DNA of 64,000 nt from an uncultured Bacteroidales bacterium (GCA_937877455.1 CALFIU010000189.1:28852-92851); one strand, 5' to 3'; shown: positions 7,360 to 53,991, numbered from the stretch's first letter. Notes: generated by a model not told the origin, from the sequence alone. Made by a program: numbers and translations.

Positions 7360-7670
7360 CTTAATTCTATCTCCCCATAATCAAGGGTTGGATCAGAAAA
7401 TACTTTGTATCCTTTATATTTACCAACCATACCAGTACAGTTATTTCTCGTGCTTTGCCCTATAAAACGTTCACATTCATTTAGTCTTGGCATACGCGCA
7501 AGTGTCTCTGGCGACATCAAGATAACTGGATCATATGATATGTCGGGATTATAGAAACTACTATGAAAACTATCTAAACCATTATCAAGTTTTTGTAAAT
7601 CAAGAGCTTGCGCAATATTAAATTTTTTCATCATATCAATATTCGACCTCGACAAAATTTTTATGACCAA
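7356..7670 (-). CDS. Hypothetical protein
   Basis: Co-oriented ORF with overlapping junctions. Confidence 0.45.
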   Translation of the reverse strand: MVIKILSRSNIDMMKKFNIAQALDLQKLDNGLDSFHSSFYNPDISYDPVILMSPETLARMPRLNECERFIGQSTRNNCTGMVGKYKGYKVFSDPTLDYGEIELR

Positions 7671-25023: not shown

Positions 25024-25965
25024 TTAATGCGCATATTCGTCTGCTTCATGCAAAGCAACAACTTCATTAAATACTTTATCGCCAAGCTGTATCTTTAATC
25101 TCTTTTCGACACTCTTGCTCATCTTCCATTCACGATAAGGATGCATATGGAAATAAATCAAAGTCGCAACATGGATAATATCATCAACATGATAATCCAT
25201 ATTGTAAAGATAAAAGATTGAGTCATAAGCTCCTACACAATGATGTTGATAGTAATGGCAATTTCCATCTCTTTCACCTTTAGAATTTACAGCAGTCATT
25301 GTGAATATCTTTCCTTCATCGTGCAAAAGCGCCGCCAAATGAAGCAACTCATTTTTGGGATATTTCTCAAGGATATATTTTCCTGCTTTTCTACAATGCT
25401 CGCCAAGCGTTAAACTATGATGATGATTTCCCTGATCCATATAATCAATGCCTGTTGCGTGGTTATAAAGTGTTGCTAATGTATAATCGGCAAAATCTTC
25501 TCTCTGGCAACTAAACATGATATCTACATCATCCCATCCTTCAGTTTTGTGCGGAGGCTGAAAATTCATGTACATGCGCTTGATTACACTATCAGGAACT
25601 TTTCTTTCCCTTTTCTGATTATTAAGCAAACACACATAGTATGGTGCTACAACTAAAACACACGATTTATGGCAAGGAATATTTTTAAGTTCCTGAAGAA
25701 ACCCCATGCGCCTTTTTCTATTGAGATTTGTGGCATCGTAAATGACATCTTTACCATTCCTTAAATCTTCTTTGATGCGCCTATGTAATTCAGTGAAAAG
25801 CTGCGCGTTTGCTTCTTTTGAATTTTCATTTACATCACCAAACATTTCTTCACGAAGATCATCAGAAGAATGAAGCTGATAATATTTACTCAACGTTCTT
25901 GCATATGTAGACTTACCACTTCCGGGCAAACCTACAAGCATCATTAAAGTTGGTATATTGTTCAT
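25024..25965 (-). CDS. Polynucleotide kinase (P-loop) fused to an HD phosphohydrolase domain
   Basis: N-terminus LVGLPGSGKST...YDATNL (T4 Pnk / AAA_33-like kinase). C-terminus HHHS...LLHDEGK (HD). Confidence 0.75.
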   Translation of the reverse strand: MNNIPTLMMLVGLPGSGKSTYARTLSKYYQLHSSDDLREEMFGDVNENSKEANAQLFTELHRRIKEDLRNGKDVIYDATNLNRKRRMGFLQELKNIPCHKSCVLVVAPYYVCLLNNQKRERKVPDSVIKRMYMNFQPPHKTEGWDDVDIMFSCQREDFADYTLATLYNHATGIDYMDQGNHHHSLTLGEHCRKAGKYILEKYPKNELLHLAALLHDEGKIFTMTAVNSKGERDGNCHYYQHHCVGAYDSIFYLYNMDYHVDDIIHVATLIYFHMHPYREWKMSKSVEKRLKIQLGDKVFNEVVALHEADEYAH

Positions 25966-27332
25966 ATGGCATCCTCCACGATCAATTCTTCCGCTTCTTC
26001 CATGTCTGGCATGTCAGATGTATCTTTGATAATTCCTTCAAGACATTTAAAACTGAAGTTTTTATGTTTGTAAGCTGTAAAACTCGGTCTGTTATCAATT
26101 CTGATAACAACGCCTTCGCGAACATGTGTCTTACCAATCGGGTCTGCGCCATCATAGTATTTTTCGACACGCGCCATAAGATCATCCCATGTAGTAAAGA
26201 TAAACTTTTCAAATGTAGGAACACACTTAGCGCCCATCTTTTCGGCTTCAATTTGTACCTGTTCCCAAGGAAGTTCAACCATAATGCCATCTTCATTCAT
26301 CATTATCATGCGATAAACATATGCATCATTTTCTCCGACTTCACATCCGTAAGAGAACACGGTTTCTTTCCCGTACTGCTTCTGGAAATCTTTATCTTTC
26401 ACGAGCTTATTTGAACATTTGCCCATGATAGTCTGATTTCCTTCTGTATAGCCAACGACCTCATAGAACACTTCGCATCCTTTAGGAAGTTTGTCTTTGA
26501 AGAAATCATGATATTTCTGTCTGAATTTGTTACTTCCGTAGTAGCCACCGTCATACTCGCGCAATGTGGTTCTTCTTGTGCCAGTGATGTATTGATACTT
26601 TCTTGTCTGTTTATCGCGAAGTTTAAACAGTTTTTTCAGAATTGGGTTTCTTCTCTTCTTTGTAATCTGAAGTGTGTTGGCTGTCCTCTGGCTCGTGCCA
26701 TGCATCTTTAATGTGATGTAGCACGTATCGCCTTCTCTAAATGCGTTCTGATTAAATGCAAGCTGCTGTGTATCAATATGCTCAACGAATAAAGGATAAC
26801 TAACCGTTTCTTTTAATTCTTTCTTGTTTACCTTGTACTTGCTACCGCCAGAAGAATTGTTTCTCTTTCTCTTCGGAATATACTTTCTGCAAATCTCGTG
26901 ACCGTCAATTACAGAAATCATATCGCCATCTCTCAGTGTAGTTACATCGACATACTTTGAAAGCGTTTCAATCGGTAAAACTAATCCGTCAGACTTTTCG
27001 CCACGAAGTTTTAATGCCGTGATATTTCTTTTCTCGGCATCCATGTATCCACCGACATTTATAACATCAACGCCATCTTTCTGAATAATTTGCTTTCCTT
27101 CAATCTGTGCATCGTCAAGTTCGGAAACAGGAACGTATTTCTTGACAAGATTATTGTCTGTTGCAAATTCTTCACTCAGCTGCCCATCGACAGGGAAATA
27201 AATAACGCGCTGTCCTTCATGATAATTCAAATCAACAATAACATTATTCCCAAACACGCTCGTTGTGAGGAGTCTGTCTGCATTCGAGTGTTTATGTAAT
27301 TCCTTTAACGTAGTGACATATGCGAAATACAT
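25962..27332 (-). CDS. RNA ligase, DRB0094/DraRnl-like (N-terminal OB domain plus adenylyltransferase)
   Basis: N-terminus HSNADRLLTTSVFGNNVIV (OB module). Motif I is ITLKMHGTS (KxHG, as in the Rnl2/Rnl5 clade). Confidence 0.75.
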   Translation of the reverse strand: MYFAYVTTLKELHKHSNADRLLTTSVFGNNVIVDLNYHEGQRVIYFPVDGQLSEEFATDNNLVKKYVPVSELDDAQIEGKQIIQKDGVDVINVGGYMDAEKRNITALKLRGEKSDGLVLPIETLSKYVDVTTLRDGDMISVIDGHEICRKYIPKRKRNNSSGGSKYKVNKKELKETVSYPLFVEHIDTQQLAFNQNAFREGDTCYITLKMHGTSQRTANTLQITKKRRNPILKKLFKLRDKQTRKYQYITGTRRTTLREYDGGYYGSNKFRQKYHDFFKDKLPKGCEVFYEVVGYTEGNQTIMGKCSNKLVKDKDFQKQYGKETVFSYGCEVGENDAYVYRMIMMNEDGIMVELPWEQVQIEAEKMGAKCVPTFEKFIFTTWDDLMARVEKYYDGADPIGKTHVREGVVIRIDNRPSFTAYKHKNFSFKCLEGIIKDTSDMPDMEEAEELIVEDAI

Positions 27333-34348: not shown

Positions 34349-34414
34349 TTATCTTGCATTATCTATTATACCAAACATAAGATAGCTTGTCAATTACTAT
34401 CTTGTATTATTTCT
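34349..34414 (-). promoter_or_regulatory. Motif-bracketed promoter: AATAATACAAGATAG-N3-TTGACA-N17-TATAAT-N7-GCAAGATAA
   Basis: The minus strand reads GAAATAATACAAGATAGTAATTGACAAGCTATCTTATGTTTGGTATAATAGATAATGCAAGATAA. Confidence 0.7.
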
Positions 34415-35697
34415 TGATCTTCTTTCAGTTCTTGCGCCCAAGTTACAAGCCATTTATTTTTATTCTTGAATGGATCTCTCATCACTTCATCCAAAAGTAA
34501 ATGAAGTACATCGCCGATTTCCTTGCTTGGTTCATATCCAATTTCTATCAAATCATCGCCAGAAATATCCAACTTATCCAAGCTACAACAATCATTATTG
34601 CCGATAATGATTCCTGCGTCAACCTTCATCTGATTTATAAGTTTTAAAAACTTGAATTTATTGATTGGACTTGCGACCGTTGCTTTCGCCATCCAGTAAT
34701 CACACAGATTTTTCGTGTTTCTAAAACCTATCTCACTAATCAGTTTTCGTACTTCATATTTACGATCATCATACTTGAAGCTGATATGTTTATAATCTTC
34801 TTTATGCTTTAGAATATCGCAAATAAGTTTACTTCTTTGGTTATCCATGCGCATATCAGTCAAGATTTCTTTTGGATTATCCGTAAACTGTAGCAACAAT
34901 GCCATTCTTACAGCAAGTTCATCATCTTTATTTGTCGCCATCAAAGACTCGATAACTTCATGATGTTCAAATAAAGTTCCTGCGTTTTTCACGCTATCGT
35001 TAAAATATGGAGTAATACAGTAGAATAAATCAAGGCAATTATAAAGTGTCCTAAATGCACTCGGAAACTGTGTACTCATTATCTTACATGTTTCGGCGCA
35101 AATTCTTTCTTTGGATATGTTGCCAAGCAATTCACGATTATATTGCATAGACCAGAGAGTTTGATTTTCAATTCTAAATCCAAGTGTAATCGCAAATCTT
35201 AACCCACGCATTATGCGCAATCCATCTTCTTTAAACCTATCATCTGGATTACCAACGCACCGAATAACACCGTCTTGAATATCTTCTAATCCGTGGAATA
35301 AATCAACGATGCCTACATCTGGATTATACGCCATAGCATTGATCGTGAAGTCGCGCCTCTTCAAATCTTCTTCGAGTCTGTCAGTGAAATTTACGTCATC
35401 AGGATGCCGACCATCGCTATACGTTCCGTCTATTCTAAATGTCGTGATTTCATATGGTTTATCTTCTATCACTACAGTGACAGTACCATGTTTAATCCCT
35501 GTTTCAACTACTTTGTAATCCTGAAAAACTTTTTCTACAACTTCAGGTAATAATGCTGTGCATATATCCCAATCGTCAGGCTCTTTTCCGAGTATGTAAT
35601 CGCGAACGCAGCCACCAACCACATAGCCAATACTACCGTAGTCATTCAGTTTTTCTAATATAAATTCTACATTTTCAGGAAGGTGTATAATTCCCAT
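34390..35697 (-). CDS. cca: tRNA nucleotidyltransferase (CCA-adding enzyme / poly(A) polymerase family)
   Basis: Head-domain motif VGGCVRDYILG...DWDI and RDFTINA. Confidence 0.85.
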   Translation of the reverse strand: MGIIHLPENVEFILEKLNDYGSIGYVVGGCVRDYILGKEPDDWDICTALLPEVVEKVFQDYKVVETGIKHGTVTVVIEDKPYEITTFRIDGTYSDGRHPDDVNFTDRLEEDLKRRDFTINAMAYNPDVGIVDLFHGLEDIQDGVIRCVGNPDDRFKEDGLRIMRGLRFAITLGFRIENQTLWSMQYNRELLGNISKERICAETCKIMSTQFPSAFRTLYNCLDLFYCITPYFNDSVKNAGTLFEHHEVIESLMATNKDDELAVRMALLLQFTDNPKEILTDMRMDNQRSKLICDILKHKEDYKHISFKYDDRKYEVRKLISEIGFRNTKNLCDYWMAKATVASPINKFKFLKLINQMKVDAGIIIGNNDCCSLDKLDISGDDLIEIGYEPSKEIGDVLHLLLDEVMRDPFKNKNKWLVTWAQELKEDQEIIQDSN

Positions 35698-36721
35698 TTA
35701 ACACACTCCAATTCGCATCTGCGAGAAACTTGTTAATTCTATCGTAATCTGGATTAGGCGGTAAATCAGTATGTTCTTTTAAGTAATTCATTTTTGCTTC
35801 TAACTCATCTACCATTTCATAAAATTCTTTCGTTGGTTGTCTGTTATCATCAAGATACTTTCCGTTCCTGATATCCATAAGAAAATCGTGATCTTTAGCA
35901 CGATAAGTAATAATTTCACCACGCTCAAGAATATCGAAACACATCAAATAAAGTCGAACCAAATGCATCATGTGCTTTGATAATTTGTCGTGTTCTATAG
36001 CATGTTGATTGCGCTTTCCAAGTTTTGAATAATCCTTGACAATATTATTCATCTCAGACCACATGCATTTATAATCACGAAGCGGATAATGCTTTAATGA
36101 CACATCCATAAAAATTTCTGTATCATAGTCCTCTTGTTCTGACTTATCAATATACAGTCTAATTGCGTCCTCTGGATAATTGAAGTATTTTTCTGGATAA
36201 GAATATCGTGTGTTTTCAATACTTCCAAGAATATGTTCTTCACGTTTTGATTGTTCAACAAGTCTAACCGCCTTGTTATCGAGCCTTCGCGCTTGGGAAA
36301 CCGCATAACCTCCGAAAGAATGAACCGCCCTTTTTGAAAGAAACATATCCCTGTTATCAATCAACGCCTGACCAATATCGGAAACATACAAATACTGCCA
36401 CGGTTCTAATCCAAGGATCTCAATCGTATTGGGATTACAATTCGATAGCAAATTGATAATCTTTTCAAGAGAATATACCGTTGTATCAGTAGCTTCATTA
36501 ACAACCTGATCGAAACCTTTTCTTGTCAGAATATCTACTGCCGAATGTGTAGCGATTCCACGCACATCAAGATCGCTATTCTCGTTATTCGTGCCATATG
36601 CATGACTGCCGCCCAATCCAAGAAGAATAATATTCTCGCCTAACGGCTTTTCTCTCAGGAAACTATATTCATCCGATTCTACTTTGCGCTTAATCTCATC
36701 AATCGTCATACTTGTATTCAC
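35675..36721 (-). CDS. Pol-beta-fold nucleotidyltransferase, RlaP-like (RNA-repair-pathway family)
   Basis: LGLGGSHAYGTNNENSDLDVRG is an NTase motif, with a long helical C-terminus (recalled PF10127 pattern). Confidence 0.6.
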   Translation of the reverse strand: MNTSMTIDEIKRKVESDEYSFLREKPLGENIILLGLGGSHAYGTNNENSDLDVRGIATHSAVDILTRKGFDQVVNEATDTTVYSLEKIINLLSNCNPNTIEILGLEPWQYLYVSDIGQALIDNRDMFLSKRAVHSFGGYAVSQARRLDNKAVRLVEQSKREEHILGSIENTRYSYPEKYFNYPEDAIRLYIDKSEQEDYDTEIFMDVSLKHYPLRDYKCMWSEMNNIVKDYSKLGKRNQHAIEHDKLSKHMMHLVRLYLMCFDILERGEIITYRAKDHDFLMDIRNGKYLDDNRQPTKEFYEMVDELEAKMNYLKEHTDLPPNPDYDRINKFLADANWSVLNGNYTPS

Positions 36722-46611: not shown

Positions 46612-47268
46612 TTATTCATCCTTCTTCTCAGCTTTTTCTAATTCATCAAGAAGTCCTTTGAAAGACGCTTCAAGTTCTGTTGATGCTTGTTTTGAAACAT
46701 CATTGATTGCACGTTTATACGCTTCTGTCATTTCACGGATACGATCTTCACGCTTTTTGTTTTCAATACGCCGTGTCTCTTGCTTAATAGATGCAAGTTT
46801 CATTCTTTCTTCTTTAACTTTCTTTAGTTCTTCTTCTCTCTTTTTCTTTGTCGCGTCAACCTTTGTAAGTGCATATTTGATAATTTTGTTGTAAACAGAT
46901 GATCCAGTTCCGATAATATCCATATCTGCAAACATCTTCTTAACAACACAAATCAGAATACCAGTTTCAAGACTGAATACATCACCTTCATTCAGATGCG
47001 CAACTTCTTTCGTTCCGTCTGCAAACTCTACGAATACTGTTTTGTCATTCGGATTAGACACGTTGATAATGTCTGGCATTAAATTTGTATGACCGATAAT
47101 GCCGTTATCCTTATTAAGATATCCAAGGAATAGATCACCATCGTCCGCGAATAGCGTGCTGCCGACAGTATTTTGTTCCATCATGTTACGGAGAAATTCA
47201 ATGAAATCATTTTCATTTTTACCGTTGTAAAGCCCACATTCAACTACACTTAGTTCATTTTCGCCCAT
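46612..47268 (-). CDS. Hypothetical protein with C-terminal coiled coil
   Basis: Co-oriented ORF with a K/E-rich tail. Confidence 0.45.
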   Translation of the reverse strand: MGENELSVVECGLYNGKNENDFIEFLRNMMEQNTVGSTLFADDGDLFLGYLNKDNGIIGHTNLMPDIINVSNPNDKTVFVEFADGTKEVAHLNEGDVFSLETGILICVVKKMFADMDIIGTGSSVYNKIIKYALTKVDATKKKREEELKKVKEERMKLASIKQETRRIENKKREDRIREMTEAYKRAINDVSKQASTELEASFKGLLDELEKAEKKDE

Positions 47269-47303
47269 GATTTTTCCTCCATGTTCTTTGTTTTTAGTGG
47301 CAG

Positions 47304-47384
47304 TGCGGATGAAGGGATTCGAACCCTTACGCCTTTCGACATTAGTTCCTAAGACTAACGTGGCTGCCGTTACACCACATCCGC
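47304..47384 (-). tRNA. tRNA-Leu (anticodon TAG), class II
   Basis: Folds by hand as GCGGATG/CATCCGC acceptor, anticodon arm TTAGT-CTTAGGA-ACTAA, a 13-nt variable arm, and T arm AAGGG-TTCGAAT-CCCTT. Confidence 0.85.
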
Positions 47385-47389
47385 ATTTA

Positions 47390-47483
47390 CAAGGCGCATT
47401 TGTTGTTTGGTGTCCTTGTCGGACAAAAAGATAATTCCCATAATCATCGCTTGTTAAACATTTACGATTGCTGTATGCGCCTT
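47390..47483 (-). ncRNA. ACAGCAA-box structured RNA, stand-alone copy (closing helix AAGGCGCAT/ATGCGCCTT)
   Basis: The 9-bp closing helix encloses AU-ACAGCAAU, an ATCG...CGAT hairpin and a GTCC-GACAA-GGAC hairpin. Confidence 0.6.
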
Positions 47484-47515
47484 TCGTGCTATAATAACAA
47501 CCCTTTACAGGGTAA

Positions 47516-47588
47516 TAGAAGGAGAAGGAGTCGAACCTTCCGCAGCTGCTTTATAAGAACAGCCCCATCGCCGCTTGGGTATCCTTCC
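47516..47588 (-). tRNA. tRNA-Ile (anticodon TAT)
   Basis: GGAAGGA/TCCTTCT acceptor (G1-U72), anticodon arm CTGTT-CTTATAA-AGCAG, and T arm GAAGG-TTCGACT-CCTTC. Confidence 0.75.
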
Positions 47589-47936
47589 AAACATAATCAA
47601 TACCAATTCTCCTCGTCAATAATTACTCAATCACCGAAACACTGTTAGTTGGTTTGCGTTGCCTTCTTCACCGAATGGCTACTTAATCCACATCCACGCC
47701 TCATTATCGGCGATTTGAATTGATATTGATTTGTCCGTATTGACTCGTCCTGTTTTCAGCCCCAACAGTCAGACCACCATCACGCACGATAGGCAGAACC
47801 AATCAACCGATACTCGTACACTGTTGCGTTTTATAGTATATTAGTAAATCTGGTGCGTCAGTCATCATAAGTGAATAAGTATATATCATTTCAACTTATT
47901 CCATCCTTGTCTACGGATGTTTTACTTATTTCTGAT
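47589..47936 (-). ncRNA. ORF-free, relatively GC-richer ~350-nt segment inside the tRNA array; candidate large structured RNA
   Basis: No minus-strand ORF. Several local and long-range complementarities, including CATCC..GGATG, GAATAAGT..ACTTATTC and CAACAGT..ACTGTTG. Confidence 0.3.
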
Positions 47937-48017
47937 TGCGGTGATTAGGATTCGAACCTATACCTCGCCCACGTTTCCCATGTCTACAGGCGTATGCTGC
48001 CTCTTACAACACACCGC
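47937..48017 (-). tRNA. Aberrant tRNA-like gene (normal acceptor and T arm, enlarged ~15-nt anticodon loop)
   Basis: GCGGTGT/TCACCGC acceptor and T arm ATAGG-TTCGAAT-CCTAA. The stem CGCC(TG)/(TG)GGCG closes the loop TAGACATGGGAAACG. Confidence 0.45.
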
Positions 48018-48151
48018 TTTTCAGTTATTCCATACCTTTGCATTTGTCCTATGGTTAGCTACACCATCGCCACCCTCACACTATTGCTAATCTTTCCCTC
48101 GATGCTATTCTTTGGATAACCTTTCTGAATTATTCGCGATATAATTCATAG

Positions 48152-48233
48152 TGCGGATAAAGGGATTTGCACCCTTACGCCATTCGGCATGGAATTTTAA
48201 GTTCCACATGTCTGCTTGTTCCATCATATCCGC
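48152..48233 (-). tRNA. tRNA-Leu (anticodon TAA), class II
   Basis: GCGGATA/TATCCGC acceptor, anticodon arm TGGAA-CTTAAAA-TTCCA, a long variable arm, and T arm AAGGG-TGCAAAT-CCCTT. Confidence 0.85.
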
Positions 48234-49004
48234 TTATATGGTGTTCCATTCATAGTCTGATATTCTTTTTATTTCAGAAGAATGATATGGCAAGTTATAT
48301 GATTTGCACCATTTTCTTATAGAATTGTCACTAACACCATAATTTTTCCCAATTTGTAAAAATGAATGATGTCTAATCATGTGCTTTAAGACATCTCTTT
48401 CTGGCTTTTTGCTTATGGCACTATATCTCTTTTTAACTTCACACGATTTACATCTTTTTGCATGTCTACTTATTTCTTTTCCACAATCGGCACAATAATT
48501 TTTAGAATCAATTTTATTTCCTATATGACTATCATGATTCGTAACGACATGTTCATATTTTCTTTTTGCACGACCACGATAGTTATCTGTTAACGCGTGG
48601 CAATTTGGACACAAAACCTTTAAGTTGCTCAAATTATTATTAAAATGATTTCCGTCTACATGATGGAGTTCAAGAGGAATCTGAACACCTTGCCAATATT
48701 CTAAACCGCAATTTTCACATTTCATATTTTTGATACCTTCTTTAATCAATCTATTTTTTAATGAAAGTGATTTAATTGGTTTTTCGTTATTCAAGAAAAT
48801 TTCAATTGGCAATTGTTTCCTATTACAACTATAACCTTTATGTGATTTATTTCCTTCATAATTAATACCAAGCACATTTAAATACTTGTTTAATGTCGTT
48901 GATTTACATGAAAGCTCTCTGCAAATATATTGTTTAGACCTATTTTCTGAAATCCATTTTAAAATATCATCTTTTCTTTCTAATATATCCTTTCTTTGTT
49001 TCAT
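48234..49004 (-). CDS. HNH homing endonuclease embedded in the tRNA array
   Basis: CENCG...LELHHVDGNHFNNNLSNLKVLCPNCH plus C-terminal HTH-like repeats. Its stop codon abuts the tRNA-Leu(TAA) 5' end. Confidence 0.8.
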   Translation of the reverse strand: MKQRKDILERKDDILKWISENRSKQYICRELSCKSTTLNKYLNVLGINYEGNKSHKGYSCNRKQLPIEIFLNNEKPIKSLSLKNRLIKEGIKNMKCENCGLEYWQGVQIPLELHHVDGNHFNNNLSNLKVLCPNCHALTDNYRGRAKRKYEHVVTNHDSHIGNKIDSKNYCADCGKEISRHAKRCKSCEVKKRYSAISKKPERDVLKHMIRHHSFLQIGKNYGVSDNSIRKWCKSYNLPYHSSEIKRISDYEWNTI

Positions 49005-49194
49005 TAAATATTCACTGACGAGTTAATATATTTTTTTTTAAAGTGTAAAGACCTTTACAATAAACTTTACACGTATTTTGTTTAGCGCTTAAAAGTAAAC
49101 CAAATGACAACATACACACTGAAACACAAAGCACAAATCTATCTTTAGGAGGAGATACACCATGTAGCGCTAAATCAGGTTTTAGAAGTTTGAA

Positions 49195-49320
49195 CGGCGA
49201 GGACAGGACTCGAACCTGCGACCTACGGCGTTTAAGGCATAATATTAAAATTGCTGTGTGTATCTTAACAAGATACGTTGTTTGTTTTTACGTTGCTCTA
49301 ACCGACTGGGCTACCTCGCC
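49195..49320 (-). tRNA. tRNA body (Asn-like GTT stem-loop) with extra sequence on both sides of the anticodon hairpin
   Basis: Has the GGCGAGG/CCTCGCC acceptor, U8A9, D arm GCCC-AGTCGGTTA-GAGC and T arm GCAGG-TTCGAGT-CCTGT. The centre is A/C-rich linker, then GTATC-TTGTTAA-GATAC, then ACACAGCAAU plus 26 nt. Confidence 0.6.
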
Positions 49321-49387
49321 GACATAGTGGATATGGCATGGAATAATCCAAGGTAAGAACCCATATCCACTTTACATATGAGTGTTC

Positions 49388-49438
49388 TAAGCGCTTATAC
49401 CCTTATCTGCTAATGGTTATAATTGCTGTTGGCGCTTA
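49388..49438 (-). ncRNA. ACAGCAA-box structured RNA, stand-alone copy (helix TAAGCGC/GCGCTTA)
   Basis: The closing helix, the CA-ACAGCAA box and a second helix TTATAACC/GGGTATAA with a 12-nt loop. Confidence 0.55.
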
Positions 49439-49447
49439 AATTTATAT

Positions 49448-50947
49448 TTACAGTAATCCTTCTACAGCTTCTCTTACTTTCGCATAGCGTTCTCCATTCA
49501 GCGTTTCAAGAAGAACTTTGTAAGGATCGACCTGATTGCTCATGAACATCTTCAGAATTTGAACCGAAAATCCACTGCAAAGAATAAGTCCCATGTCATT
49601 CTGTTGCATCGGAATTGTTCCGTTTAATCTACCACTTAAATTCCAGAAACAAATCCTCGGAAGTTTATATCCTGCATCCTCAAACTCCTGCGCAATTTCG
49701 TCAAACAGGCTCTTGTTAAGATTATGAGAATGACCGTCAAACTGCATGTCAGAACAAATCACAATCATCTTTGGCATATCTTCCGCAGAAGTATGATTTC
49801 TTTTTGCTGTTTTCAGGATTAGCATCATAGTCTTATAGATGTCTGTATTTGAACAATCTGACTCGCGCAAGGAAAGATCGATTTTATCTGCAAGCGAATA
49901 ACAATTCGACAGATCGACAATCTTCGGATTGGACGAAAAAGTGACGAACTTATTTTTCCAATCACCTGTATTATGTTCGGACATATAGATTGCAAGCGCG
50001 GTTGCTACATCCAAAGGTGTACCACTTCCTGCAAAACTTCCCCATGTCATAGAACCAGAACCATCACGAACAATCAGTGTGTTCTCTACAGACAAGTCAG
50101 GAAGAGCTTTCCATAGTGCTTCGAGCGTTGCGTCATTTCTGCATCTATTCTGGCGATACTTCAGGCAGATCTCGTGAGGATTAAGTGTACTTGCGTTAAT
50201 CTTTACAGTTCCTTTTTCAAGTGATGCAAGATATTCGCGTCTACGATCTTCATCGTTACGGAGAAACGCGCCGTTGTATATCAGATTAGCCTTAGAAGGC
50301 ACAGACTCGTAATTGATTTTATCCCACTTTTTAGCACTCATCTTGACTTCGACAACATCAAGATATTTTCTAAGTTTGGACAAAGTCTTTCTGTACTTCT
50401 TTTCTGTCCATCCAAGTTCACGGCAAATCAGTTTTGCTCTATCAACTGTTATCTTGGATGATGCATTAACACTCGGCATCCACTTCGCGCACAACGAAAT
50501 CGACTTGCCTTCTTTCATGTTCGCTTTATCTTCTTTCAGCTGCGCCTTGATTAAAGCGATTGCCTTTCCTCTCGTTCTTTCATCATCGAGCATAACCATG
50601 ACGCTATCCCAACGATTATAGAACGGAATAAGATCAACAATAGCTTTTGCAATTTTCGGCTGTTTCTCTGCAAGATAACTTAAACCAGCTCTGAAAGCTT
50701 TTCTCTCGCCAAGCCCTTCACGGACATCGCCAAGATAGAAAAGATATTCAAGTGCAGTCAGCTTATCCTCGAAGAAAACCTTCATGAAATCTTCCTTGAT
50801 TGCTTCGGGAAATCTGTTTCGCATAGCGGATACGCCAAAGTTGAAATCAAGAAGTTTCTTTCCTGCTGTCGCATAAGCGATCGCGCCGTTTGTGGTTACT
50901 GATTTTTGAGTGTTCAATTCATTTTGCATTTCATCGAAGAAACTCAT
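49448..50947 (-). CDS. Ro60-like TROVE/vWA protein (DUF2828-type)
   Basis: N-terminus TTNGAIAYATAG..LLDF...LFYLGDVREGLGERKAF (TROVE/DUF2828-like). C-terminal vWA MIDAS motif RDGSGSM. Confidence 0.65.
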   Translation of the reverse strand: MSFFDEMQNELNTQKSVTTNGAIAYATAGKKLLDFNFGVSAMRNRFPEAIKEDFMKVFFEDKLTALEYLFYLGDVREGLGERKAFRAGLSYLAEKQPKIAKAIVDLIPFYNRWDSVMVMLDDERTRGKAIALIKAQLKEDKANMKEGKSISLCAKWMPSVNASSKITVDRAKLICRELGWTEKKYRKTLSKLRKYLDVVEVKMSAKKWDKINYESVPSKANLIYNGAFLRNDEDRRREYLASLEKGTVKINASTLNPHEICLKYRQNRCRNDATLEALWKALPDLSVENTLIVRDGSGSMTWGSFAGSGTPLDVATALAIYMSEHNTGDWKNKFVTFSSNPKIVDLSNCYSLADKIDLSLRESDCSNTDIYKTMMLILKTAKRNHTSAEDMPKMIVICSDMQFDGHSHNLNKSLFDEIAQEFEDAGYKLPRICFWNLSGRLNGTIPMQQNDMGLILCSGFSVQILKMFMSNQVDPYKVLLETLNGERYAKVREAVEGLL

Positions 50948-50987
50948 AATTGCTTTACCTCTCTCTTCTTAGTTTGTGGTTGCAATT

Positions 50988-51053
50988 CAAGGCACTGGTT
51001 TTGGTTGTAAGATTAAAAGTCTTATCCATAATTGTGGTTGCTGTATGTGCCTT
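50988..51053 (-). ncRNA. T-arm-less mini tRNA-like RNA displaying a Lys(UUU) anticodon stem-loop (ACAGCAA-box family)
   Basis: Reads AAGGCAC-AU-ACAGCAACCACAATTATGGA-[TAAGA-CTTTTAA-TCTTA]-CAACCAAAACCA-GTGCCTT-G. Confidence 0.6.
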
Positions 51054-51061
51054 AAATATAT

Positions 51062-51178
51062 AGCGCACGATTGGATTCGAACCAATGACACGATTTTTTG
51101 TTTGTTTAATTGCTGATTGCGATTATCACTAACCACGTTTAACAAGTTAAATTGCACTACCAACTGTGCTACGTGCGC
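51062..51178 (-). tRNA. tRNA body with ~50-nt insertion in the anticodon loop region
   Basis: Has the GCGCACG/CGTGCGC acceptor, U8A9, D arm GCAC-AGTTGGTA-GTGC and T arm ATTGG-TTCGAAT-CCAAT. The insert carries AU-CAGCAAU. Confidence 0.6.
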
Positions 51179-51193
51179 CATCCCTTTCGGGAA

Positions 51194-51349
51194 AAGCAGC
51201 GACAGGAATCGAACCTATGACTGCGGCTTGCCTCGGTAAATTTGCTGTATGTTTCTTTAATTCCCCAACTCTAACTCGTCTGTGCGGTTACTCTTGGTGG
51301 TAACAAGAAACATTTTTATGCCGCCGTGATCCCACTTCACTACGCCACT
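51194..51349 (-). tRNA. tRNA body with ~85-nt insertion inside the anticodon loop
   Basis: Reads AGTGGCG-UA-GTGA-AGTGGGA-TCAC-G-GCGGC[92 nt]GCCGC-AGTC-ATAGG-TTCGATT-CCTGT-CGCTGCT-T. The insert holds the GTTTCTT...AAGAAAC helix and AU-ACAGCAA. Confidence 0.7.
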
Positions 51350-51352
51350 TCG

Positions 51353-51476
51353 CCCATCGTGAAGGATTCGAACCTTCCCCTCAAGTTTTCCAGACTTGTA
51401 ATTGATATGTAATATTGCTGCAAGCGCTTCACTAAACGCACAATCAAAAGATGTGCTACCGCTACACCAACGATGG
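51353..51476 (-). tRNA. tRNA body with ~53-nt insertion between the D arm and the anticodon arm
   Basis: Has the CCATCGT/ACGATGG acceptor, D arm GTGT-AGCGGTA-GCAC, anticodon arm CAAGT-CTGGAAA-ACTTG and T arm GAAGG-TTCGAAT-CCTTC. The insert holds the hairpin GCGTTT-AGTG-AAGCGC followed by UU-GCAGCAAU. Confidence 0.6.
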
Positions 51477-51491
51477 GATATTTAATTTTTA

Positions 51492-51558
51492 CAAGACACT
51501 GAAATGGTAATATAAGTTAACAGCTTATTCCTCTTTCATTTATTGCTGTTTGTGTCTT
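51492..51558 (-). ncRNA. T-arm-less mini tRNA-like RNA displaying an Asn(GUU) anticodon stem-loop (ACAGCAA-box family)
   Basis: Reads AAGACAC-AA-ACAGCAATAAATGAAAGAGGA-[ATAAG-CTGTTAA-CTTAT]-ATTACCATTTCA-GTGTCTT-G. Confidence 0.6.
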
Positions 51559-51570
51559 TCATTTTTAACA

Positions 51571-51661
51571 CAAGGCACTTTATTTTGATGGACTTGAACC
51601 ATCTCGCAAAGACTTACAATGTATTTACTTTATCCGATGTTAAGTTTGCTGTATGTGCCTT
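51571..51661 (-). ncRNA. ACAGCAA-box RNA with a canonical T arm (Y-RNA/tRNA-like hybrid)
   Basis: Reads AAGGCAC-AU-ACAGCAA..., then TAAAG[16-nt loop]CTTTG, then GATGG-TTCAAGT-CCATC, then AAAATAAA-GTGCCTT-G. Confidence 0.55.
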
Positions 51662-51666
51662 TCTTG

Positions 51667-51732
51667 TTATCTTGCAATACCTATTATAGCATGCCGTTTA
51701 TGGTTTTGCAAGTGTTATTTTGTATTATTTCT
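51667..51732 (-). promoter_or_regulatory. Motif-bracketed promoter inside the RNA array: AATAATACAAAATAA-N3-TTGCAA-N17-TATAAT-N7-GCAAGATAA
   Basis: The minus strand reads GAAATAATACAAAATAACACTTGCAAAACCATAAACGGCATGCTATAATAGGTATTGCAAGATAA. Confidence 0.7.
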
Positions 51733-51765
51733 AATACTTTTTGAATGTCAACAACAACGGCAACG

Positions 51766-51838
51766 TGCGCCAGATGGGATTTGAACCCATGACTTTTCGA
51801 TTAAAAGTCGAATACTCTACCATCTGAGTTACTGGCGC
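51766..51838 (-). tRNA. tRNA-Lys (anticodon TTT)
   Basis: GCGCCAG/CTGGCGC acceptor, D arm ACTC-AGATGGTA-GAGT, anticodon arm TTCGA-CTTTTAA-TCGAA, and T arm ATGGG-TTCAAAT-CCCAT. Confidence 0.9.
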
Positions 51839-51842
51839 TTAA

Positions 51843-51913
51843 CAACCCCTGATGGAGTCGAACCATCACATACAGGGTCAAAGCCTGTTTCGCTACCGTT
51901 ACGATAAGGGGCT
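51843..51913 (-). tRNA. tRNA-Gln (anticodon TTG)
   Basis: AGCCCCT/AGGGGTT acceptor, anticodon arm ACAGG-CTTTGAC-CCTGT, and T arm GATGG-TTCGACT-CCATC. Confidence 0.8.
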
Positions 51914-52042
51914 AAAAAGTATTGCGTTTGTCGAAAGTTTATGTTATCATATATGAGCCATCATTAGTTTGATGTGCTTTGTGTATGTGGTAGGGAGTTG
52001 GCTTTAAGCCTTCTCCCTATCTTTATTTCCTTCAACTCTTAT

Positions 52043-52092
52043 AGTGTACCACACGCGCAAATATTCGTCAAGCGTTTTTTTGCATTATTTTT
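52043..52092 (-). promoter_or_regulatory. Promoter of the tRNA/RNA array: AATAATGCAAAAAAA-N3-TTGACG-N17-TACACT (TG-extended)
   Basis: The minus strand reads AAAAATAATGCAAAAAAACGCTTGACGAATATTTGCGCGTGTGGTACACT. Confidence 0.65.
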
Positions 52093-52095
52093 AAT

Positions 52096-52470
52096 TTAAT
52101 CACAGTACCCTGTTATAAGCTCGATCCCATATTTATTAAGAACCTTTTCAACTGCATCCCAATAGTATCTTCCACAATCTTCGTTATCTATAACGAATAC
52201 GTTCTCATATTTCTTATCATTTGTATTAACAGTCCAATAACACACTTCGTAAGGTTCATCTACATATTCTTTAATTCTGAAGTGACCGATTCCGTCGCCG
52301 CTAACATCAGACCAGTCATATTCATCATAATCGTCATCGCGCCAATGTTTAGCTTCTTCGTTCGCCATTTCCAGAAGAATATCGAGTAACCGTCCGTGTG
52401 TCACTTTATCTCTGGAAATAATGAAACTACTTGAGCTACTATTCGTCACAAAATCTTTTCTAATTTTCAT
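52096..52470 (-). CDS. Ser-tract family paralog C (start reassigned to MKIRKDFVTNSSSSSF)
   Basis: Shares the invariant N-terminus with 53096-53563 and 53560-53991. Confidence 0.55.
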   Translation of the reverse strand: MKIRKDFVTNSSSSSFIISRDKVTHGRLLDILLEMANEEAKHWRDDDYDEYDWSDVSGDGIGHFRIKEYVDEPYEVCYWTVNTNDKKYENVFVIDNEDCGRYYWDAVEKVLNKYGIELITGYCD

Positions 52471-53083
52471 TCTTTTCCACCATAGTATCAATAATATAAT
52501 AAAACGATTGATATATAAGTATCCCCCCAATAGCATTAAATAAAATATTTAACAGTAAATATCTAAGTACATTCAAATTGAATAATCCAGCAACAGAAAA
52601 ATAAAACACGTTTGCTATGCAATGTTCAAATCCGCAAAATACGAAGATAGAAGTTGCCATCCATAGAATAATTGTTCTAAATATATGCGAAACATTCTCG
52701 TTCTTAAATGTATCAACGGCAATAAAGAGCAAGACATTACACATAATAGCAAGAGGAATAATTTCCCATCCCTCGGTGAGTTTGCTTCTGCAAATTTCCA
52801 TCGCACTAACAATTAGTGTTGGCTTGGCATATCCGAAAACAATTCCCATAAGTGTTGCACCAACAATATTTCCAAAAAGAATTAAAATCAATTTTGGTAT
52901 GCCAGATATCCCGGCGATATATGGCGCTTTTCCTGTAAACAAATTTAAATGATACGCGCAAACAATCAGTAATCCTATAGGGAATAATAAAGCTTGTTTA
53001 GTACACAGGTAAGCTATTGCTCCGATAGATATTGCCACTCCTGCCCATATAGAACTTATAAATATTTCTAGTTTATCTTTCAT
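52460..53083 (-). CDS. Formate/nitrite transporter (FNT)-like membrane protein
   Basis: Six hydrophobic segments. CGFEHCIANVFYF resembles the FNT signature GFEHSIANM. Confidence 0.5.
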   Translation of the reverse strand: MKDKLEIFISSIWAGVAISIGAIAYLCTKQALLFPIGLLIVCAYHLNLFTGKAPYIAGISGIPKLILILFGNIVGATLMGIVFGYAKPTLIVSAMEICRSKLTEGWEIIPLAIMCNVLLFIAVDTFKNENVSHIFRTIILWMATSIFVFCGFEHCIANVFYFSVAGLFNLNVLRYLLLNILFNAIGGILIYQSFYYIIDTMVEKNEN

Positions 53084-53095
53084 TAAACCCCTCCA

Positions 53096-53563
53096 TTAAT
53101 GATGGCTGAACCGTTGGATAGTGCAATCAAGCCTCGGCATAACTTCATGCTCAAGATCTCCGTCTACATGATCGCTATATTCAACCAAAGAAAGATATTC
53201 TAAACCTTCTATCTTCTGTTTAAATTCCGAAAACCATACATTTACCCTTTCTTTCACAGCGTTTTCAAATGCGGTTTTGTTTTCTGGCGCTTCAATCCAA
53301 TTATAAAATTCGCGCCATCCGAGTTTTCTTTCATATTCACGTTCAATAATAAATCGCGCATCCCAATACATTTCATCCTTAAATATATGCAGCGCTTCAT
53401 CTTTTGAAATATGGTTTTTCAAAATATCTTTAAGAACACGGTCGAAATTTCTACCGATATATAATTCGTTGCCGAGTTGTTCTTTTACATCATCTTTTGA
53501 TTTAAACCCTACGATGAAGCTACTGCTGCTTGAATTGGTCACATAATCCGTTCTGATTCTCAT
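53096..53563 (-). CDS. Ser-tract family paralog B (MRIRTDYVTNSSSSSF...)
   Basis: Conserved N-terminal 16-mer. 4-nt overlap with paralog A. Confidence 0.55.
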   Translation of the reverse strand: MRIRTDYVTNSSSSSFIVGFKSKDDVKEQLGNELYIGRNFDRVLKDILKNHISKDEALHIFKDEMYWDARFIIEREYERKLGWREFYNWIEAPENKTAFENAVKERVNVWFSEFKQKIEGLEYLSLVEYSDHVDGDLEHEVMPRLDCTIQRFSHH

Positions 53564-53991
53564 TCATGTTCTCCTAACAATACGACAAAATCATCTGACT
53601 CTAACTCATAAAATAAATCTTCTCGATAGTCACCATATCCCACATTTTTAGTTAAAATTTTATATCCTTCTTCCATCTTTTTAACGCACTTTTTGTAAAT
53701 ACTTCTAACCCAAGAATCCTCTTTGCATAATTCTTCAAATGTTCTGTAGCCATATCCATAACTCTCGAATAAATGTCGGCGCAAATCTATCAAGTTTTCA
53801 AAAACTTCTGTTTCTGTTGTTTCATATGACGCGCTATTATTTCCAAAAATTGCATCCTTCACAATTTTCTGATAAGATTCAAGAAATGGATATTTTGTTA
53901 TTGTGTCCTCATCAATATTAGGTAATCCTTTGAACGCAATAACAAAACTGCTACTACTCGAATTAGTTACAAAGTCATTTCTGATTTTCAT
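53560..53991 (-). CDS. Ser-tract family paralog A (MKIRNDFVTNSSSSSF...)
   Basis: Conserved N-terminal 16-mer. Confidence 0.55.
   Translation of the reverse strand: MKIRNDFVTNSSSSSFVIAFKGLPNIDEDTITKYPFLESYQKIVKDAIFGNNSASYETTETEVFENLIDLRRHLFESYGYGYRTFEELCKEDSWVRSIYKKCVKKMEEGYKILTKNVGYGDYREDLFYELESDDFVVLLGEHE

Follow-up and report, generated by a model that had tools for sequence, protein, structure and literature searches.

We found that a family of small structured RNAs, which is real, widespread and apparently unannotated, flanks a gene encoding a predicted Ro60-like protein. In the window, by which we mean the whole 64-kb stretch of DNA analysed, the minus strand carries nine copies between positions 47390 and 51661, plus one degenerate copy, and these lie on both sides of the gene (Table 1). 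We consider it likely, with a probability of about 0.7, that the copies are Y-RNA-like non-coding RNAs partnering the protein encoded among them, and that they represent a new subclass of Y RNA.

Copies in the window

The nine copies present their handle in the same order: a 7-bp covarying helix (P1), then NN, then an [A/G/U]CAGCAA box. In the five stand-alone modules (A, B, F, G and I), P1 pairs the 5' end with the 3' end, while in the four tRNA-embedded copies (C, D, E and H) it forms a hairpin within the anticodon arm of a tRNA-like body of ordinary, not permuted, topology. This arrangement agrees with the original prediction, which had placed the partner strand downstream in the former and upstream in the latter. 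All the minus-strand copies listed there exist, and their description as a selected, structured RNA family survived alignment and controls.

Three details had to be revised. The copy in 51062-51178 (copy E), described as having no obvious partner, does have one, in the hairpin GUGGUUA-GUGA-UAAUCGC-AA-UCAGCAA (51136-51110); it pairs over 7 bp with two G-U pairs and is present in the minimum-free-energy fold. At the related locus L002, a U-to-C change in the 5' arm (GCGGUUA) turns one of these wobbles into a C-G pair. The ACAGCAA box, thought to be invariant, is so in its CAGCAA core, but its first base varies (GCAGCAA in C, UCAGCAA in E). Finally, the degenerate copy near 49100 keeps a covarying 9-bp helix, compensated as an 11-bp helix at the equivalent site of L002, but lacks the box; its family membership is doubtful and it may be a different element. 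The Ro60-like neighbour, the likeness to Y RNAs and the partner of copy E had all escaped the first reading of the sequence.

Table 1. Features of the copy-bearing region, in window coordinates
Feature	Coordinates	Strand	Remarks
Tandem sigma-70-like promoter matches	51683..51751	-	Consensus matches only; just 5' of module A
Module A, stand-alone	51571..51661	-	P1 AAGGCAC/GUGCCUU-G, box ACAGCAA
Module B, stand-alone	51492..51558	-	P1 AAGACAC/GUGUCUU-G
tRNA-like body C	51353..51477	-	Acceptor stem, D-arm, T-arm, long variable arm
tRNA-like body D	51196..51352	-	P1 closes 46-nt loop
tRNA-like body E	51062..51178	-	Hairpin replaces or interrupts anticodon arm
Module F, stand-alone	50988..51053	-	3' end 40 nt ahead of start codon of ORF 50947-49448
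Presumed protein-partner gene, 499 aa	49448..50947	-	Pfam DUF2828 + DUF7788/vWA
Module G, stand-alone	49387..49438	-	Begins 9 nt past stop codon of ORF 50947-49448
tRNA-like body H	49195..49320	-	Hairpin inserted in 5' strand of anticodon stem
Degenerate copy (membership doubtful)	49074..49174	-	9-bp helix UUUAGCGCU/AGCGCUAAA, then CAAAAUA in place of box
Hairpin + U-run, intrinsic-terminator-like	49031..49072	-	Sequence reading
Module I, stand-alone	47390..47483	-	Between tRNA-Ile and tRNA-Leu; 9-bp P1 AAGGCGCAT/ATGCGCCTT-G

The copies are structured RNAs. The strict pattern AAGNNNCNNACAGCAA was seen six times against 1.19 expected, a number reached in none of 100 shuffles, with all six matches on the same strand within 4.2 kb, and P1 is present in the minimum-free-energy folds of all ten units. 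At 84 related viral loci, a perfect 7-bp partner accompanies 232 of 325 unique ACAGCAA contexts, whereas swapping the 7-mers among boxes yields a mean of 77 and a maximum of 91; these loci contain 105 distinct P1 sequences. In an 84-sequence alignment both sides change at every P1 pair, and the covariation score is 0.511, compared with 0.172 after shuffling and at most 0.126 with the partners slid. The covariance-model check proposed at the outset was likewise positive: model R1, built from relatives, recovered the five stand-alone copies at E <= 2e-6 and nothing else at E <= 0.01 in the entire 64 kb, and it also detected copies in independent cultured organisms.

The stand-alone modules differ in their cargo. 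Module A (R1 score 38.6 bits, E 6e-7) includes a T-arm, GAUGG-UUCAAGU-CCAUC, and compensatory changes affect both P1 and the T-stem of its L002 orthologue. Modules B (55.2 bits, E 5.5e-11) and F (53.2 bits, E 1.6e-10) carry anticodon-stem-loop mimics, AUAAG-CUGUUAA-CUUAU (anticodon GUU) and UAAGA-CUUUUAA-UCUUA (anticodon UUU), the latter atop a UGG/CCA mini-helix. Module G (P1 UAAGCGC/GCGCUUA-G; 38.2 bits, E 8e-7) carries a small hairpin whose loop reads UAAGGGU, and module I (P1 AAGGCGCAU/AUGCGCCUU-G; 36.6 bits, E 1.9e-6) carries two hairpins, one with a UAUGGGAAU loop.

Among the tRNA-like bodies, C holds the hairpin GCGUUU-AGUG-AAGCGC-UU-GCAGCAA (51439-51415) in its anticodon arm, its 3' part gives a weak Rfam tRNA match (25 bits), and an orthologue is present in L002. 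In D, GUUUCUU-G (51311-51304) pairs with AAGAAAC (51257-51251), followed by AT and the box ACAGCAA (51248-51242). Body H contains GUAUCUU-GUU-AAGAUAC-AC-ACAGCAA (49276-49251), with a candidate anticodon loop, CUUAAAC, downstream. The Rfam tRNA scores (RF00005) of E (45.8 bits) and H (44.4 bits) pass the gathering score only by skipping anticodon-arm insertions of 46 and 63 nt, respectively. ARAGORN called no tRNA for C, D, E or H, and we rejected ordinary tRNAs, defined by a cloverleaf whose 5-bp anticodon stem is contiguous and bears a 7-nt loop, for these four bodies. Group I tRNA introns were also rejected: the inserts measure 29-77 nt against a core of at least 200 nt, and they have no Rfam match.

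A single transcript, started at the tandem promoter-like sites (TTGACA-16-AATAAT; TTGCAA-17-TATAAT with extended TG), would cover A, B, C, D, E and F, then the gene, then G and H, and stop at the terminator-like hairpin. The latter is absent from the output of a consensus terminator scan; from its sequence, it is probably the end of the A-to-H transcription unit.

A predicted Ro60-like protein encoded among the copies

The product of ORF 50947-49448 carries a DGSGS MIDAS motif in its DUF7788/vWA part. Its AlphaFold2 model (pLDDT 80.6, 32-sequence alignment) predicts helical repeats arranged in a ring, together with a vWA domain, as in Ro60. The top five Foldseek matches in the PDB are all full-length Ro60 (1yvr, E 2e-8; 9l5y; 2nvo; 9nep; 9nfa), from Xenopus, Deinococcus and Thermus phage phiLo, with TM about 0.5 and E values of 2e-8 to 5e-6; they alone span the model from end to end, and the remaining matches cover the vWA domain only. 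PHROG 850 annotates the protein as 'RNA-binding protein'. At the sequence level, the DUF2828 protein did not match Pfam TROVE even at E <= 10, nor any PDB chain, and it is by predicted fold alone that we call it Ro60-like.

Modules are linked to this gene. At 146 of 164 homologous loci, taken from phage contigs (78/84) or bacterial genomes (68/80), a module lies on the same strand within 400 nt of it, with a median gap of 70 nt upstream and 55 nt downstream. Because modules still flank the gene at the 58 of about 80 bacterial loci that have no tRNA gene within 3 kb, such as those of Veillonella atypica and Treponema ruminis, the linkage is to the gene and not to tRNA arrays. In the reverse test, the gene was present in the available stretch for 24 of 69 viral-contig pattern matches with a P1 partner and for none of 55 chance matches without one. 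Counting against the Y-RNA reading, some module-rich stretches, L122 among them, contain no homologue in the roughly 10 kb of sequence at hand. Unannotated modules also occur in a Listeria phage, a mycobacteriophage and the E. coli Felixounavirus phage heid, whose tRNA array contains four.

Orientation is constrained as well: across 86 viral loci, the gene strand has 475 occurrences of ACAGCAA and the opposite strand 30, or 327 versus 3 when a P1 partner is required. This strict bias speaks against a DNA-level feature, whether a miniature mobile element or a hairpin recognised by the nearby HNH endonuclease or by a transposase. Such a feature would fit the varied insertion positions in tRNA genes and the HNH genes within the same islands, but the G-U-containing compensatory changes work only as RNA of that strand, copies within one genome have only the handle in common, insertion cannot produce permuted and enclosing topologies, and many loci lack an HNH gene; we regard it as very improbable.

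We also find it unlikely that the modules are cis elements of polycistronic tRNA and mRNA transcripts, which could admit or block an RNase, stabilise the transcript or serve the adjacent gene as a translational operator, and not stable trans-acting RNAs. Modules do adjoin the start and stop of the gene, some sit between tRNAs in long arrays, and in KVP40 an ACAGCAA without detectable P1 partner stands in the 5' leader, about 30 nt ahead of the AUG. However, the order in Veillonella atypica is promoter, two modules, terminator, then ribosome-binding site and gene, which from the sequence makes the modules their own transcription unit. Moreover, long members are complete YrlA-like RNAs, and the cargo covaries as independent structures. 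Autoregulation via the same handle is compatible with the Y-RNA reading, and the two are not mutually exclusive.

Family architecture

Across the family, the handle is built on a 7-bp helix in which 5'-N-A-G-r-y-r-C pairs with G-y-r-y-C-U-N'. A G at the 3' end stays unpaired, as does the NN-[A]CAGCAA segment of the 5' strand; the box reads [A/U/G/C]CAGCAA, and about seven nucleotides are conserved. Cargo may be absent, or it may mimic an anticodon stem-loop, provide a T-arm, form a circularly permuted tRNA of the YrlA kind or comprise a whole tRNA; where the handle is embedded in a tRNA, it closes into a hairpin branching off the anticodon arm. The smallest members (31-35 nt) have no more than the stem and a loop rich in A. 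A motif scan found T- plus D-arm motifs in 32 of 456 unique closed modules. Permuted-tRNA members occur at loci L122, L115, L252, L261 and L281 and in phages heid and Archie.

Small self-cleaving tRNA-associated ribozymes (theta/HDV-like, or in the manner of twister) are an explanation to which we give hardly any credence. The modules adjoin phage tRNAs and have a 7-bp helix, and a sub-threshold twister-P1 match elsewhere in L115 indicates that such elements occur in these arrays. Yet the HDV-like/theta, twister, hammerhead, pistol and hatchet models are all unmatched at E <= 10 in 46800-52300, the smallest members could not accommodate a catalytic core, and conservation is limited to those seven or so nucleotides.

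Likeness to Y RNAs

Published Y RNAs have a 5'-3' stem beside an internal bulge, with a conserved motif touched mainly on the 5' strand, and the Ro-binding motif of Y RNA and YrlA is GNCGAA/CGAA, as set out in PMC4201824 and PMC12135203. In our family, too, the 5' and 3' ends form a stem, and the conserved motif next to it is unpaired and on the 5' strand; GNCGAA/CGAA is absent from the modules, which have the CAGCAA-type box instead. As YrlA is with Ro60, the RNAs are same-strand neighbours of a gene, here for a protein of predicted Ro60 fold, often with RtcB, and several occur per locus. A subset of modules, the long members, has the tRNA-like domain of YrlA, a permuted tRNA made up of T-arm, closed acceptor hairpin and D-arm.

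These long members are similar to YrlA by model comparison. At related loci, Rfam YrlA (RF02553) matches them with 31.7-44.3 bits (E 1e-6 to 5e-3), significant but below the gathering score of 69, and matches of permuted-tRNA members span the full model length, with limits that coincide with the module boundaries. The best score in the window, 23.3 bits at 51240-51126, is also below that gathering score. The two YrlA model alignments put the box in differing registers, and the model did not match the modules of phage heid, Archie or the Listeria phage. No Rfam family reached threshold for the modules in the window or in cultured-phage loci, so the earlier view that no named family fits stands. 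Unlike YrlA, the family has the motif CAGCAA, scores 23-44 bits against 69, and accompanies a DUF2828 and not a TROVE protein. Most members are 31-70 nt long with an anticodon-stem-loop mimic or small hairpin only, some are an ordinary tRNA from which the handle branches sideways or a whole tRNA inside the handle, and canonical anticodon loops are often kept.

Two phage systems are close to ours. Thermus phage phiLo encodes Ro60 with Yrl1/Yrl2 just upstream, for which counter-defence by hijacking host RNA enzymes was proposed (PMC12135203). It resembles our family, whose protein has a predicted Ro60 fold, in pairing a phage-encoded protein of that fold with Y-like RNAs nearby; it differs in that its protein is called a Ro60 homologue by the authors, that there are two RNAs only, with a CGAA bulge, and that the relevant passages describe no tRNA-part cargo (PMC12135203). 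In phage Bas63, gp130 is reported to be Ro60-like by structure, to lie upstream of a tRNA array and to counter Ppl defence; the preprint identified no RNA, and its authors guessed that some of the array 'tRNAs' are Y RNAs (PMC11482910). Felixounavirus homologues of our protein, including that of the Bas63-related phage heid, are encoded directly upstream of the tRNA array, as is gp130. By analogy of genus and gene order, gp130 probably belongs to the same protein family, and the heid modules supply candidates for its partner.

RNA-repair context and possible excision

The modules occur among RNA-repair genes. RtcB lies directly 5' of the gene in 14 of 80 bacterial loci, with modules between both genes, an adjacency that resembles the Salmonella rsr-yrlBA-rtcBA operon, and it is also present in the Listeria phage locus. 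The window further encodes an RNA ligase, a polynucleotide kinase, a CCA-adding enzyme and RlaP.

Simple protein docking leaves intact anticodon loops beside the handle unexplained, which counts against the Y-RNA reading. The handle could instead be an excisable element, either a new protein-dependent tRNA intron or a processing signal, chaperoned by the Ro60-like protein; cleavage at the handle and rejoining by RtcB or the phage RNA ligase would then turn embedded and permuted forms into functional tRNAs. In favour of this decidedly unlikely scenario, ligase genes co-occur with the modules, and in several cases a canonical anticodon arm reappears once the insert is taken out, among them L001 tRNA-Thr(UGU), with the insert at 28/29, L001 tRNA-Ile(UAU) and window H. 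Permuted forms retain a canonical 7-nt anticodon loop, with the anticodon stem split at the same place, and their topology and nearby RtcB-type ligase may be compared with the permuted tRNA genes of Cyanidioschyzon. As in archaeal and eukaryotic tRNA introns, the inserts occupy the anticodon arm or its vicinity, and both canonical and non-canonical sites are used.

Unlike such introns, most modules lie outside any tRNA, and most have as cargo just an anticodon stem-loop or another small hairpin, or none, and are unable to yield a tRNA, yet their position is conserved. The inserts sit at differing positions (28/29, 29/30, 31/32, 38/39), and the spacing between handle and junction is variable as well. 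An archaeal-type intron junction has two 3-nt bulges separated by a 4-bp helix; we saw no bulge-helix-bulge motif by eye at four junctions, nor any symmetry of that kind at the inserts, and no splicing endonuclease gene among the Pfam-scanned ORFs. A brute-force ARAGORN deletion test on the window copies gave many conflicting solutions.

In a related proposal, which we hold to be a long shot, the handle marks RNAs for cutting and rejoining, amounting to protein-dependent splicing of interrupted or permuted tRNA genes with the Ro60-like protein as scaffold. If true, protein-dependent tRNA splicing and permuted tRNA genes would exist in bacteria and their phages, a putative nuclease together with RtcB or the phage RNA ligase would yield working tRNAs, and the short anticodon-stem-loop modules would be decoys or substrates for host anticodon nucleases.

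Under the Y-RNA reading that we favour, the handle (P1/CAGCAA) would dock on the ring of the Ro60-like protein in the way that Y RNAs dock on Ro60 with their stem and bulge. The analysis shows the structure of the RNAs, their linkage to the gene, the predicted fold of its product, the likeness to YrlA and the RNA-repair genes nearby. We infer the physical binding, as well as the processing of the RNAs, with RNase P and RNase Z cutting out the tRNA-like bodies, and the role of the cargo: the docked RNA would display its tRNA-like part to factors that recognise tRNA, such as RNA-repair enzymes, nucleases or host anticodon nucleases. The outcome would be a phage ribonucleoprotein for RNA repair or counter-defence.

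Modules of the RNA island

Within the phage-like genome, the RNA island contains five ordinary tRNAs according to ARAGORN and Rfam (Gln, Lys, Leu-UAA, Ile-UAU and Leu-UAG), and two further Rfam 'tRNAs' with insertions of 46 and 63 nt in the anticodon arm. We found nine instances of the recurring block reported in the original prediction, hereafter modules A to I. Five of them (A, B, F, G and I) stand alone: a helix of 7-9 bp (P1) joins their first and last nucleotides. After P1, the 5' strand continues with two variable bases and ACAGCAA (the box), and the 3' strand with an unpaired G. The other four (C, D, E and H) lie within tRNA-like bodies that retain the acceptor stem, D-arm and T-arm. 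In these embedded copies the two P1 strands are adjacent as a hairpin and the box comes after it; in copy D, P1 is not a simple hairpin but the stem closing a 46-nt loop.

P1 is present in the minimum-free-energy fold of every unit, and the strict pattern is enriched in the window (6 observed vs 1.2 expected). Copy E, described before as having no obvious partner, does pair (GUGGUUA/UAAUCGC), and in a relative its 5' arm reads GCGGUUA, so that one G-U wobble becomes a C-G pair. The box had been called invariant, which holds for its core CAGCAA but not for its first base, since C has GCAGCAA and E has UCAGCAA. As for the 'degenerate copy' near 49100, its compensated helix is kept but the box is absent, and for this reason it may be another element.

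Other features of the island are located in the table. Module G and tRNA-like body H are separated by a long, perfectly paired hairpin (AGUGGAUAUGG...CCAUAUCCACU), which might act as an attenuator or mark a site of processing; in L002, a locus carrying orthologues of the window copies, the hairpin at the matching position has a changed sequence. About 560 nt without ORFs lie between tRNA-Leu(UAA) and tRNA-Ile(UAU), including a weak tRNA-like match with a long insert (20 bits); the L002 segment with which they have blocks in common holds an ARAGORN tRNA that might suppress UGA, its anticodon being UCA. HNH genes similar to the one inserted in the island also occur in the tRNA arrays of relatives (e.g. 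L002, phage heid).

Location of the features discussed, in the window and in fetched loci (L-numbers)
Sequence	Coordinates	Strand	Feature
Window	51920-47300	minus	Non-coding RNA island
Window	50947-49448		Ro60-like ORF
Window	49325-49375	minus	Long perfect hairpin
L002	~7607-7640		Corresponding hairpin
Window	48234-49004	minus	HNH homing-endonuclease gene
Window	47590-48150	minus	ORF-free segment
Window	48017-47937		Weak tRNA-like match
L002	8000-8490		Segment with blocks in common with window 47590-48150
Window	42080-42019		Rejected covariance-model match
Window	25024-27332 and 34390-36721	minus	RNA repair toolkit
Window	52096-53991	minus	Three paralogous ORFs
Window	53083-52460	minus	Formate/nitrite-transporter-like gene
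Window, left end	944-1873 and 4736-5935	plus and minus	Reverse transcriptase ORF (RVT_1), tyrosine integrase
L122; L290	5852-6477 and 187-276; 965-1516		ROOL and OLE-model matches
L003	7581-7663		CUA-anticodon tRNA
L122	8880-8954	reverse	CUA-anticodon tRNA
L001	~2288-3070		HNH-like ORF with in-frame TAG codons
L289 (Vibrio phage KVP40)	2440-2490		ACAGCAA in 5' leader
L115	2327-2377		Twister-P1 ribozyme match

Covariation across viral relatives

A blastn search of the island against cultured phages returned tRNA and HNH fragments only, and relatives were instead reached through the protein encoded between the copies, giving 84 non-redundant viral loci. In all 86 viral loci fetched, ACAGCAA is 16 times commoner on the gene strand (475 vs 30); boxes with a perfect 7-bp partner number 327 on this strand and 3 on the opposite one, and a G directly follows the partner in 284 of the 327. 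A control independent of alignment and selection consisted of swapping heptamers among boxes: the partner, present in 232 of 325 unique contexts (105 different P1 sequences), was then found in 77 contexts on average and in no more than 91. We aligned 84 modules of 52-70 nt with MAFFT. Each of the seven P1 pairs varies on both of its sides, and so does each of the five pairs of an inner hairpin that had played no part in selection. The covariation score, 0.511, falls to 0.172 after shuffling and to 0.126 or less on sliding the partners.

From this alignment we built a covariance model, R1. In the whole 64 kb it finds all five stand-alone copies (A, B, F, G and I; E <= 2e-6) and nothing else up to E = 0.01, and it also detects copies in cultured-organism loci outside its training set. 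One further R1 match (19 bits, boxless, inside an A-rich spacer) was rejected. Strand bias, swap control, alignment and covariance model thus bear out the covariation that had been proposed. The strand bias and the G-U compensation, which is specific to RNA, also speak, together with the minimal size of some modules and the lack of Rfam matches, against a ribozyme or a DNA-level element, which we disfavour; we rejected a theta/HDV-like ribozyme on the architecture and the absence of Rfam matches.

A Ro60-like gene accompanies the modules

The protein encoded by the ORF between the copies matches Pfam DUF2828 and DUF7788/vWA. Neither its single sequence nor a profile found anything in the PDB, and there was no sequence-level match to Pfam TROVE. 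A single-sequence AlphaFold model was discarded (pLDDT 38.6), and the prediction was redone with an alignment of 32 homologues (AlphaFold2, pLDDT 80.6). The five best PDB matches of the latter model, and the sole whole-chain ones, are Ro60 structures (E 2e-8 to 5e-6), among them Xenopus Ro60, alone and with misfolded pre-5S rRNA, the Ro60 of Thermus phage phiLo and Deinococcus Rsr; TM is about 0.5 except for Rsr (0.37). PHROGs labels the family 'RNA-binding protein', and mycobacteriophage annotations name homologues 'Ro-like RNA binding protein'. One search gave at least 5,600 DUF2828/DUF7788 homologues; the family occurs in 711 cultured phage genomes, including Felixounavirus (E. coli, Salmonella), P100-like Listeria phage (Pecentumvirus), KVP40 and mycobacteriophages.

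Counting as a module any CAGCAA box with a perfect P1, a module lies within 400 nt of the gene in 78 of 84 viral loci and in 68 of 80 bacterial-genome loci, and the gap has a median of 70 nt on the upstream and 55 nt on the downstream side. Where ACAGCAA is absent, in a few loci, its place in an unchanged arrangement is taken by UCAGCAA, CCAGCAA, GCAGCAA or ACAGCAC. No tRNA gene is found within 3 kb in 58 of about 80 bacterial loci, and in such loci the gene is still flanked by modules. In the reverse direction, a 14-base pattern was scanned in viral contigs, where about 45% of matches are due to chance, and filtered by requiring a P1 partner. The gene lay within the short available stretch for 24 of the 69 matches with a partner, and beside none of the 55 partner-less chance matches.

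In Treponema ruminis, single modules separate a WYL-type regulator from RtcB and RtcB from the Ro60-like gene, after which come two more modules. There are 14 bacterial loci in which RtcB is the immediate upstream neighbour of the Ro60-like gene, and a Listeria phage locus carries RtcB too; this mirrors the Salmonella rsr-yrlBA-rtcBA operon. The latter is listed in PMC7790460. In Veillonella atypica KON the order is consensus promoter, two modules, terminator and ribosome-binding site of the gene. A purely cis-acting role would agree with the position of modules at the ends of the gene, but the Veillonella modules form a separate promoter-terminator unit, and the YrlA-like members described below do not fit such a role either.

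The 5' leader of the KVP40 homologue contains ACAGCAA, directly after a promoter-like site and some 30 nt ahead of the start codon; no P1 partner was detected for it. This might be the handle, as we call P1 plus box, in a reduced form with a regulatory role only.

Diversity of module architecture

We surveyed the forms of 456 unique closed modules. The smallest (31-35 nt) are a bare stem with a loop of about 17-20 nt starting NN-ACAGCAA. A large class of about 60 nt, to which window modules F (UUU) and B (GUU) belong, mimics an anticodon stem-loop, with a 5-bp stem, a 7-nt loop, U33, a purine at 37 and varying anticodons (UUU 19, GUU 11, GCU 6, others). Other modules carry a T-arm (A in the window) or hairpins with GGGA-type loops (G and I). 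Long members are permuted tRNAs, consisting of T-arm, loop-closed acceptor stem and D-arm, and in many of them an intact anticodon stem-loop forms a side branch. In some members, from L203 and L115, the handle surrounds a complete tRNA of ordinary topology. The window copies set in tRNA-like bodies share this general design, except that their ends have moved to the acceptor stem.

Permuted members align with the Rfam YrlA model (RF02553) over its full length, scoring 32-44 bits at E 1e-6 to 5e-3 and falling short of the gathering score (69); the match coordinates coincide with the module ends. Cultured-phage members gave no YrlA match at all. We considered that the box might equal the GNCGAA motif of YrlA, but a second alignment used a different register.

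The most interesting alternative is splicing, with the handle marking an excisable segment. Several embedded tRNAs regain a canonical anticodon arm once the insert is removed, and the anticodon stem of permuted forms is split at that same place. However, neither the junction positions nor the distances from handle to junction are constant, four junctions inspected by eye showed no bulge-helix-bulge motif, and the majority of modules could never give a tRNA. Running ARAGORN on every possible segment deletion from C, D, E and H does not decide intron status, because it yields many mutually incompatible solutions.

Further elements were noted nearby. The window also has three small tandem paralogous ORFs without Pfam or PHROG match, whose products have R-x-D-[FY]-VTNSSSSSF in common as N-terminal motif; next to these ORFs lies a formate/nitrite-transporter-like gene, unusual for a phage. 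The reverse transcriptase and integrase genes suggest a temperate phage or prophage with a retroelement. Among the modules and tRNAs of a viral contig we found a ROOL RNA (323 bits); Listeria phage LP-083-2 has a sub-threshold ROOL match (87 bits) upstream of the Ro60-like gene, and L122 a short OLE-model fragment match (52.9 bits, gathering score 50). CUA-anticodon tRNAs, possible amber suppressors, occur in the same islands, in L003 directly 3' of the Ro60-like gene, and the in-frame TAG codons of the HNH-like L001 ORF are a hint that some of these phages recode stop codons. A sub-threshold twister-P1 match (41 bits, E 1e-5) sits inside the module-containing phage tRNA array of L115.

Discussion

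Y RNAs, as portrayed in PMC4201824 and PMC12135203, have a 5'-3' stem flanking an internal bulge with a conserved motif, are contacted by Ro60 mainly on the 5' strand, and are encoded beside Ro60, the bacterial ones with a tRNA-like domain. The module family reproduces the same logic of stem, conserved motif, gene adjacency and tRNA-like part, but it differs in its motif, CAGCAA, and in its protein, which is divergent and Ro60-like. By analogy, since the family follows this logic, P1 and CAGCAA would be a protein-binding handle and the rest of the RNA a displayed tRNA-like cargo.

On these comparisons, we classify the modules as a putative new subclass of Y RNAs with a new candidate binding motif, and the protein, judging by its model, as a new subfamily serving as their presumed partner. 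New as well are the minimal, anticodon-stem-loop-only, tRNA-embedded and tRNA-enclosing topologies, which have not been described for Y RNAs. Our literature search (DUF2828, ACAGCAA, Ro60-like) found no description of the module RNA and no reported function for DUF2828. The Ro-likeness of the protein has been noted in annotations and one preprint.

In the window phage, an RNA ligase gene adjoins a polynucleotide-kinase-like gene, and a CCA-adding enzyme gene adjoins an RlaP nucleotidyltransferase gene. Given these genes, the modules may plausibly act in tRNA damage and repair or in counter-defence. The anticodons most commonly displayed, Lys-UUU and Asn-GUU, are classic anticodon-nuclease targets; that the modules act as anticodon-nuclease decoys is speculative.

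Bas63 gp130 is reported to be Ro60-like by structure, to be encoded just upstream of a tRNA array and to counter the Ppl defence, and the authors of that study guessed that some 'tRNAs' of the array are Y RNAs (preprint PMC11482910). In the corresponding array of the related E. coli phage heid we found four unannotated modules, one of them a permuted tRNA. The region is conserved among 260 genomes of related phages, most of them Felixounavirus, where its annotations are limited to tRNA, tRNA-OTHER and hypothetical protein. The gene is also flanked by modules in mycobacteriophage Archie and Listeria phage LP-083-2. The heid modules are thus candidates for the 'missing Y RNAs' suspected beside this anti-defence gene, and the setting makes modules testable, genetically and biochemically, in phages of E. 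coli K-12. More generally, many 'tRNA-OTHER', pseudo-tRNA and 'hypothetical protein' entries in phage tRNA arrays may be modules.

The large and uncharacterised DUF2828/DUF7788 family thereby gains a concrete candidate RNA partner and a testable function, that of a Ro60-type ribonucleoprotein. The modular design is unusual, with one short putative protein-binding handle combined with pieces of tRNA in every possible topology, and it points to Ro60-type particles linked with tRNA damage and repair and with the phage-host arms race.
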